DNA of 64,000 nt from Escherichia coli (GCF_041248615.1 NZ_CP158426.1); one strand, 5' to 3'; positions 28,584 to 29,924 are shown, counted from the first letter of the stretch. The notes: generated from the sequence alone by a model not told the origin. Translations and numbers: made by a program.

Positions 28584-28588
28584 GTCAG
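28584..28588. repeat. IS2 target-site duplication, copy 1 (GTCAG)
   Basis: 5-bp gtcag immediately flanking the IS2 terminus; identical copy at 29920-29924. Confidence 0.85.
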
Positions 28589-28599
28589 TGGATTTGCCC

Positions 28600-29505
28600 C
28601 TATATTTCCAGACACCTGTTATCACTTAACCCATTACTGGCCTGCTGCCGCAGATATTCCCGTGGCGAGCGATAACCCAGTGCACTATGCGGATGCCATT
28701 CGTTATAATGCTCGAACGCCTCTGCAAGGTTCTTTGCTGCCGTTAACCCGTCTGGTTTAGGCATGATACTGATGTAGTCACGCTTTATCGTTTTCACGAA
28801 GCTCTCTGCTATGCCGTTACTCTCCGGACTCCGCACCGCCGTGTTCTTCGGTTCAAGCCCCAATATCCGGGCAAACTGCCGTGTTTCATTAGCCCGGTAG
28901 CATGAACCATTATCCGTCAGCCACTCTACTGGAGACGCCGGAAGCTCGTTGCCGAAGCGGCGTTCCACCGCTCCCAGCATGACGTCCTGTACTGTTTCAC
29001 TGTCGAAGCCGCCCGTAGTGACTGCCCAGTGCAGTGCCTCACGGTCACAGCAGTCCAGCGCGAACGTGACTCGCAGTTTTTCTCCGTTATCACAGCGGAA
29101 CTCGAACCCGTCAGAGCACCATCGTTGATTGCTTTCTTTCACGGCCACTTTGCCAGTATGTGCCCGTTTCGATGGCGGTACAGCGGTTTTTCGCTCAAGC
29201 AACAGCGCATTCTGGCGCATGATCCGGTAAACACGTTTGGCATTGATCGCAGGCGTACCATCAAGTTCGGCCTGTCTGCGAAGCAGCGCCCATACCCGAC
29301 GATAACCATACGTGGGCAGCTCTCCGATAACATGGTGTATACGGAGAAGCACATCCGTATCATCTGAGTGACGGCTGCGGCGACCATCTTTCCAGTCATC
29401 GGTTCGTCTGAGAATTACGTGCAACTGCGCACGCGACACCCGGAGACAACGGCTGACTAAGCTTACTCCCCATCCCCGGGCAATAAGGGCGCGTGCGCTA
29501 TCCAC
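28600..29505 (-). CDS. insD: IS2 transposase OrfB (InsD; DDE integrase-like catalytic domain)
   Basis: 301-aa [33 protein letters not shown]...; IS3-family transposase. Confidence 0.93.
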
Positions 29506-29828
29506 TTTTTTGCACGCCCGTATTCAACGGCTTCTTTAAGGAGTTCATTTTCCATCGTTTTTTTGCCGAGCAGGCGCTGGAGTTCTTTAATCTGCTTCAT
29601 GGCAGCAGCAAGTTCAGAGGCAGGAACGACCTGCTCTCCTGCGGCCACAGCAGTAAGACTTCCCTCCTGGTATTGCTTGCGCCAGAGAAATAACTGGCTG
29701 GCTGCCACACCGTGTTGCCGGGCAACAAGGGAGACCTTCATTCCCGGTTCAAAACTCTGCTGAACAATAGCGATCTTTTCCTGTGTAGTACGCCGTCTGC
29801 GTTTCTCCGGTCCTAAGACATCAATCAT
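29463..29828 (-). CDS. insC: IS2 OrfA (InsC; HTH DNA-binding protein)
   Basis: ORF track 29463-29873; start placed at [24 protein letters not shown] (121 aa); overlaps insD in the -1 frame. Confidence 0.9.
29505..29512 (-). other. IS2 A6G slippery site for programmed -1 frameshifting (OrfAB fusion transposase)
   Basis: Plus-strand cttttttg is minus-strand CAAAAAAG inside the insC/insD overlap (codons ...AKKW...); IS3-family frameshift mechanism is established knowledge. Confidence 0.7.
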
Positions 29829-29919
29829 CTGCTCTCCAATGACTAGTCTAAAAACTAGTATTAAGACTATCACTTATTTAAGTGATATTGGTTGTCTGGA
29901 GATTCATGGGGCCAGTCTA

Positions 29920-29924
29920 GTCAG
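29920..29924. repeat. IS2 target-site duplication, copy 2 (GTCAG)
   Basis: 5-bp gtcag directly after the IS2 terminus ...ggccagtcta. Confidence 0.85.

Follow-up and report, generated by a model that had tools for sequence, protein, structure and literature searches.

We analysed a 64,000-nucleotide stretch of an Escherichia coli chromosome (hereafter the window, meaning the whole stretch), in which a complete insertion sequence (IS) of the IS2 type interrupts the autotransporter gene ehaB, also named yaiT. The window is identical to positions 4035666-4099665 of NZ_LT599825.1, the chromosome of E. coli NRZ14408, which published papers describe as a multidrug-resistant clinical isolate. Our analysis points to a recent insertion particular to this strain and to ehaB as a gene in which IS2 insertions recur across the species.

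The interrupted ehaB gene and the element within it

The element, its coding regions and the two gene fragments that it separates occupy the following positions of the window.

28589-29919, minus strand: complete IS2-type element of 1331 bp (sequence re-read)
28584-28588: first copy of the target-site duplication, GTCAG (sequence re-read)
29920-29924: second copy of the target-site duplication, GTCAG (sequence re-read)
29878-29919, minus strand: left inverted repeat (IRL), 42 bp, with one substitution (C13A) relative to K-12 IS2
28589-28629, minus strand: right inverted repeat (IRR), 41 bp, with one substitution compared with K-12 IS2; adjoins the distal piece of ehaB
29463-29828, minus strand: orfA (insC), 121 amino acids, helix-turn-helix protein; uninterrupted open reading frame (ORF), Pfam HTH_Tnp_1
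28600-29505, minus strand: orfB (insD), 301 amino acids, DDE integrase core; uninterrupted ORF, Pfam rve, rve_3 and HTH_21
29505-29511 (IS coordinates 409-415), minus strand: A6G slippery heptamer, AAAAAAG, inside the orfA/orfB overlap
25949-28588, minus strand: distal ehaB/yaiT fragment, gene nucleotides 310-2949 including the stop, with most of the passenger and the beta-barrel (ORF list, PF03797); its final 5 bp are the left duplication copy
29920-30233, minus strand: proximal ehaB/yaiT fragment, gene nucleotides 1-314, with the signal peptide and roughly the first 78 residues of the passenger (ORF list)

Read on the minus strand, the element opens at 29919 with the IRL sequence TAGACTGGCCCCATGAATCTCC and closes at 28589 with the IRR terminus ...GGAAATATAGGGGCAAATCCA (also written ...GGGGCAAATCCA); the two repeats, whose lengths of 42 and 41 bp were taken from PMC3299598, align with a single gap. 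The GTCAG repeat measures exactly 5 bp, identity being lost when it is extended by one more base on either side. The chance of a 5-bp match at two fixed positions is about 1 in 1024, and a GTCAG pair placed exactly at the ends of an element that duplicates 5 bp is the expected signature of insertion. The original prediction, made by a model from the sequence alone, had described a 1331-bp IS2 flanked by GTCAG at 28584-28588 and 29920-29924; upon re-reading, all of these coordinates were confirmed, and the two flanking repeats, on whose identity that description depended, are both GTCAG.

The insertion falls in codon 105 of ehaB, and read-through from the proximal fragment into the IS stops at 109 amino acids (signal peptide, 104 native residues and a few that are IS-encoded). 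Removal of 1336 bp, that is, the IS and one GTCAG copy, joins 30233-29925 to 28588-25949 and yields 2949 nt, comprising 982 codons and a stop with no internal stop, in agreement with the earlier expectation that excision restores a frame of about 982 codons. In keeping with a type Va autotransporter, the rebuilt 982-amino-acid protein carries a C-terminal autotransporter beta-domain (PF03797) at residues 724-961 (E 5e-47) and matches TIGR01414 (E 2e-84). By eye, its N-terminus, MHSWKKKLVVSQLALACTLAITSQANA/A, combines basic first residues with a hydrophobic core and an A-N-A motif, which in our own reading constitute a putative Sec signal peptide. RefSeq annotates the locus as a pseudogene 'missing N-terminus' at 25949-28615, an 'IS3 family transposase' with 'programmed frameshift' and a coding sequence at 28600-29828, and a pseudogene 'missing C-terminus' at 29919-30233. 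The genes run in the order hemB-ehaB-iprA-ampH, as they do in K-12 and in strains whose ehaB is intact. The host gene had been predicted to be the autotransporter gene yaiT, and the identification of the gene, between hemB and iprA, holds, but its current name is ehaB (autotransporter adhesin EhaB). The passenger region varies among E. coli ehaB alleles, with identity falling to ~80% in parts. According to PMC13248724, which cites Wells et al. 2009, EhaB binds collagen I and laminin and promotes biofilm formation.

Both transposase proteins were identified by profile searches. Pfam matches included PF01527 (E 5e-19) and PF00665 (E 8e-20), together with PF13683 and PF13276; OrfA scored 273.5 bits against the NCBIfam model 'IS2 repressor TnpA' (NF006928, cutoff 229), and OrfB scored 700.8 bits against 'IS2 transposase TnpB' (NF006918, cutoff 597). 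A simulated -1 slip at the A6G heptamer gave an open OrfAB fusion of 409 amino acids, the predicted frameshift product. Aligned with the K-12 copy IS2A, the element has 95.5% nucleotide identity, with 60 substitutions, no indels and one substitution in each inverted repeat. OrfA matches K-12 InsC at 120 of 121 residues (99.2%), and OrfB differs from K-12 InsD at 13 of 301 residues (95.7% identity). By the ISfinder convention, copies count as isoforms above 95% identity in nucleotides or from 98% upwards in amino acids; on this scale, isoform-level identity to the reference IS2 appears borderline, the nucleotide value lying just above its threshold and OrfA above the protein threshold, but OrfB below it. 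On every structural and protein criterion tested, the element is by its sequence a member of the IS2 group, representing a diverged isoform and not the K-12 sequence. The prediction of an IS2 with insC and insD, an A6G site and terminal repeats was therefore right as to anatomy, ORFs and frameshift site, but the element is a 95.5% isoform and not the K-12 sequence. It is this divergence from K-12 IS2 that leads the NCBI pipeline to label it merely 'IS3 family transposase'. The variant is widespread, being the best match at an identity of at least 99% in 1012 of the 7711 E. coli records with IS2-like DNA.

Age and origin of the insertion

The 800-bp empty site, rebuilt by removing the element, was found colinear and 100% identical in 12 genomes, each with an intact gene named ehaB, so the comparison with uninterrupted orthologues that the original prediction had proposed came out in its favour. 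The closest genome in the collection is that of isolate 362 (NZ_OW967178.1), which is ~100% identical over 24.7 kb beside the IS, the next best reaching 99.0%. Over its 2949 nt, the rebuilt ehaB matches the uninterrupted gene of isolate 362 at 100% identity, and it differs by 2 nt from that of CFSAN018748; across 8.8 kb around ehaB, only 2 substitutions and one 1-bp indel separate the window from isolate 362. Moreover, among 5426 complete genomes, the junction occurs at 100% identity in one, the source itself. The other check that had been proposed, a comparison with further IS2 copies in the same genome, revealed a second copy at 100990-102320 of the same chromosome that is 100% identical and carries its own 5-bp duplication.

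Because ehaB matches the allele of isolate 362, the junction is unique to the source and the two IS copies are identical, the insertion appears recent and strain-specific, and the same three observations uphold the earlier claim of recency. We consider it highly probable (roughly 0.93) that an active element of the IS2 lineage, resident in NRZ14408, recently moved into the chromosomal ehaB (yaiT) at codon 105, as an event specific to this strain. Three points weigh against this account. 'Recent' is relative here, as it is based on one near-identical genome and identical IS copies and no dated tree stands behind it; NRZ14408 is represented by a single assembly; and the loss of EhaB function is inferred from the sequence, the evidence for current activity of the IS being indirect, namely two 100% identical copies in one genome, each with its own duplication.

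The pathway of IS2 transposition is described in the literature. A rare -1 frameshift at A6G produces the OrfAB transposase, the 3' end of IRR is cleaved and joined beside IRL to form a figure-of-eight that replication converts into a minicircle, and the two ends at the minicircle junction go on to attack the target, with the catalytic centres placed 5 bp apart (PMC3299598). By analogy, OrfAB would have been made by frameshifting and the IS copied out by way of figure-of-eight and minicircle forms, after which both 3' ends of the minicircle junction would have attacked ehaB 5 bp apart, repair of the stagger duplicating GTCAG. In our view, the 5-bp spacing of the catalytic centres fits the 5-bp duplication. 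The insertion would cut off the signal peptide and 104 native residues from the remaining passenger and the beta-barrel. With the signal peptide severed from the beta-barrel, no exported adhesin is expected: the downstream piece would lack a signal peptide, EhaB would be neither exported nor displayed, and the allele would probably be null.

Recurrent IS2 insertion at ehaB

IS2 junctions in the same 5426 genomes were counted with 600-bp chimeric probes, each joining 300 bp of host DNA to 300 bp of an IS end, and a genome was scored when one place covered at least 80% of the query.

ehaB nt 315-614 anchor, IS orientation as in the window: 39 genomes
ehaB nt 315-614 anchor, IS reversed: 17 genomes
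ehaB nt 2299-2598 anchor, IS orientation as in the window: 15 genomes
ehaB nt 2299-2598 anchor, IS reversed: 19 genomes
ampH control anchor, IS orientation as in the window: 0 genomes
lacZ control anchor, IS orientation as in the window: 0 genomes

The four ehaB probes sum to 90 IS2 matches in or beside ehaB, a total in which a genome with two copies may count twice, whereas the matched probes detected no IS2 junctions in the non-essential genes ampH and lacZ across this collection. This disparity bears out the suggestion that yaiT is a recurrent IS target, and we take the insertion in the window to be one of many independent IS2 events in this gene across E. coli. The accompanying statement that an IS3 disrupts yaiT in K-12 MG1655 also proved accurate, IS3B being read there after gene nt 1458. 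Strict orientation specificity of IS2 was rejected, as the reversed probe added 17 genomes near the 5' end and matched 19 genomes, versus 15, near the 3' end. A hot spot restricted to the 5' end or promoter was likewise rejected, as the probe anchored in the beta-barrel region also matched IS2 insertions.

Mapping of 15 IS-bearing loci revealed 13 different insertion points between -127 and +1433, counted from the start codon, and every one of them has its own perfect 5-bp duplication. Across 15 distinct sites, the duplicated 5-mer is weakly biased, with G beside IRR in 10 of them and T in second place in 8 (GTAGT, GTAGC, GTAGA, GTCAG, GTAAT, GTGCA and others); from this small sample (n=15), drawn mostly from one gene, no conclusion on a target consensus was reached. 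In two of the strains, ZH48 (L008) and AW1.7 (L017), ehaB contains a pair of IS2 copies, the first close to its 5' end and the second in the opposite orientation at about nt 1264-1433. An IS110-family element adjoins ehaB in ZH48, and an IS1 lies between ehaB and iprA in ET650. With regard to base composition, G+C is 32-34% in the hemB-ehaB intergenic region (30200-30800) and ~41-42% in the 5' part of ehaB (29920-30233 and 28000-28588), and the genes neighbouring ehaB have 50-58%; the AT-rich and possibly curved DNA of the ehaB 5' region may bear on the target choice of IS2.

In four strains, an IS2 copy with its IRR facing the gene lies a short way upstream of an intact ehaB or overlaps the start codon.

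ZH48: L008 4738-6068
Strain 4600: L009 4609-5939
ET650: L010 4646-5976
LD39-1: L012 4631-5963

In strain 4600, the ehaB start codon ATG takes its A from the last base of the IS. The IRR of IS2 holds an outward -35 hexamer that is known to form fusion promoters (PMC9330008). Given this hexamer, such upstream insertions might activate the normally silent ehaB through a predicted fusion promoter.

Beyond their recurrence within one gene, some insertions occupy the same nucleotides. In 16 other genomes, a one-piece match of 600/600 spans the left junction of the window at ~95% identity, colinear with canonical IS2. Two of these, H2 and 98218, were read, and both agree exactly with the window in the ehaB nucleotide occupied by the IS, in its orientation and in the GTCAG duplication (L003 4301-5631 and L004 4301-5631). 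They carry the canonical IS2, which departs by 1 nt from K-12 IS2A and by 59 nt from the copy in the window, and the 59 differences are spread over positions 13-1305 of 1331. The host flanks also differ from those of the window, by 4-6% within 100 bp on each side and from 1 bp past the duplication onwards. Taken together with the IS-free allele of the nearest relative, the differences in IS and flanks make independent insertion far likelier than shared ancestry or gene conversion; the canonical-IS2 insertions at this site are thus far more likely to be events separate from that in the window. A second coincidence was found at gene nt 125-129 (GTAGT), again in the same orientation, where ETEC1701 carries the variant IS (L007 4486-5816) and FDAARGOS_1287 the canonical IS (L011 4486-5816).

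By a rough estimate, ~15 events distributed uniformly over ~900 position-and-orientation slots would give ~0.1 coincident pairs, and two were seen. This excess suggests that nt 310-314 (GTCAG) and nt 125-129 (GTAGT), each used by both lineages, are preferred nucleotides. Our tentative interpretation, to which we give somewhat less than an even chance, is that ehaB is a true IS2 hot spot in which preferred nucleotides are reused by lineages 4.5% apart, that the structure or sequence of the target DNA directs IS2 beside any selection, and that upstream copies with IRR facing the gene might switch ehaB on.

The recurrence could instead reflect selection that favours losing or rewiring a surface adhesin which is costly or immunogenic, with insertions arising everywhere and persisting in dispensable genes, an explanation that we regard as conceivable but doubtful. 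The spread of insertions over the whole of ehaB and its upstream region, in both orientations, is what it would lead one to expect, and other families are represented as well, with IS3 within the gene in K-12 and IS1 and an IS110-family element beside it. However, ampH and lacZ, non-essential genes from the same window, gave 0/5426 with the same probe design, and the use of two 5-bp sites by both IS2 lineages in the same orientation, against ~0.1 coincidences expected, is not readily attributed to selection. The two causes are not mutually exclusive; selective pressure to lose or rewire a surface antigen may contribute as well, and with the present data the two are inseparable.

Alternative origins and comparison with known systems

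Turning to the insertion in the window itself, it is very improbable that it is an old one, shared by descent with the 16 genomes that bear IS2 at the same ehaB position and altered since by divergence in place or by gene conversion from another IS2 variant. Shared descent would account for the agreement in nucleotide, orientation and GTCAG with H2 and 98218 and for the one-piece junction matches in 14 further genomes, and the IS divergence of 4.4% resembles the adjacent flank divergence of 4-6%. Nevertheless, the nearest relative and 11 other genomes contain the IS-free allele at 100% identity, so that an old insertion would need repeated precise excisions. Furthermore, the IS in the window has a 100% identical counterpart elsewhere in its genome and the copies in H2 and 98218 are 1 nt from K-12 IS2A, neither of which is predicted by divergence in place, and gene conversion would need to span positions 13-1305 of 1331, leaving 12 and 26 bp of end homology. 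Common ancestry with the canonical-IS2 insertions at this site was rejected on these grounds: the flanks differ 1 bp past the duplication, the IS copies differ from end to end, and the IS-free allele of the relative is 100% identical. Misplacement of a repeat copy into ehaB during assembly, conceivable in a genome with 13 places that match this IS, is more improbable still, given that each junction falls precisely on the outermost base of IRL or IRR, that a misjoin does not produce a perfect 5-bp host duplication, and that dozens of independent complete assemblies show the same type of insertion at this position or close by.

Three further features of the window were observed away from ehaB. 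At about 33447, where the 3' end of tauB meets the start of tauC, the window has a 1-bp deletion relative to isolate 362 that alters the last TauB residues; tauB is annotated as 780 nt in the window and 768 nt in isolate 362, and the indel may be real or a sequencing error in either record. The yaiX-like acetyltransferase gene (37650-38231) is intact in the window, whereas in K-12 it is split by IS2A. The yaiS-like PIG-L deacetylase gene (35795-36205) is annotated as a truncated pseudogene in the window, whereas yaiS of K-12 is complete.

The recent insertion into ehaB is an ordinary IS event that created a pseudogene already annotated in RefSeq, and the element type, the mechanism and the gene are all known. 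Only the view gained across the population, of ehaB as a preferred IS2 target in which the same nucleotides are reused, is mildly new; a limited literature search, which is not proof of novelty, found no papers on IS recurrence in ehaB/yaiT. NRZ14408 would, as a consequence of the insertion, be without a functional EhaB adhesin, and the wider pattern of IS2 insertions calls for caution in virulence-gene typing that scores ehaB simply as present or absent. The literature leaves the target choice of IS2 open, with intrinsic curvature as one proposal (PMC3299598), and the natural set of ehaB insertions could serve its study.

Among known elements, the closest counterpart is K-12 IS2 (IS2A, insC1/insD1, 381260-382590 of NC_000913.3; IS3 family, IS2 group), which has the same length of 1331 bp, the same IRL of 42 bp and IRR of 41 bp, the same overlap of orfA and orfB at the A6G -1 frameshift site and the same 5-bp duplication; the element in the window differs from it by 60 substitutions and in 13 of 301 OrfB residues. 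The canonical IS2 copies at the same ehaB site (H2, 98218 and 14 others) resemble the insertion studied here in position, orientation and GTCAG for H2 and 98218 and by colinear junction matches for the 14 others, but they belong to a different IS lineage (59 positions) and lie in different ehaB alleles. The yaiT pseudogene of MG1655 (b4580) is the same gene between hemB and iprA, likewise inactivated by an IS3-family element; there, however, the element is IS3 (1258 bp), it lies after nt 1458 in place of nt 314, and its orientation relative to the gene is opposite. Finally, EhaB of enterohaemorrhagic E. coli O157:H7 (Wells et al. 2009) is the known counterpart of the rebuilt gene by name, through 100% DNA identity to genes that RefSeq names 'ehaB: autotransporter adhesin EhaB' and through the C-terminal beta-domain, whereas the gene in NRZ14408 is interrupted and would not be expected to yield a functional adhesin.
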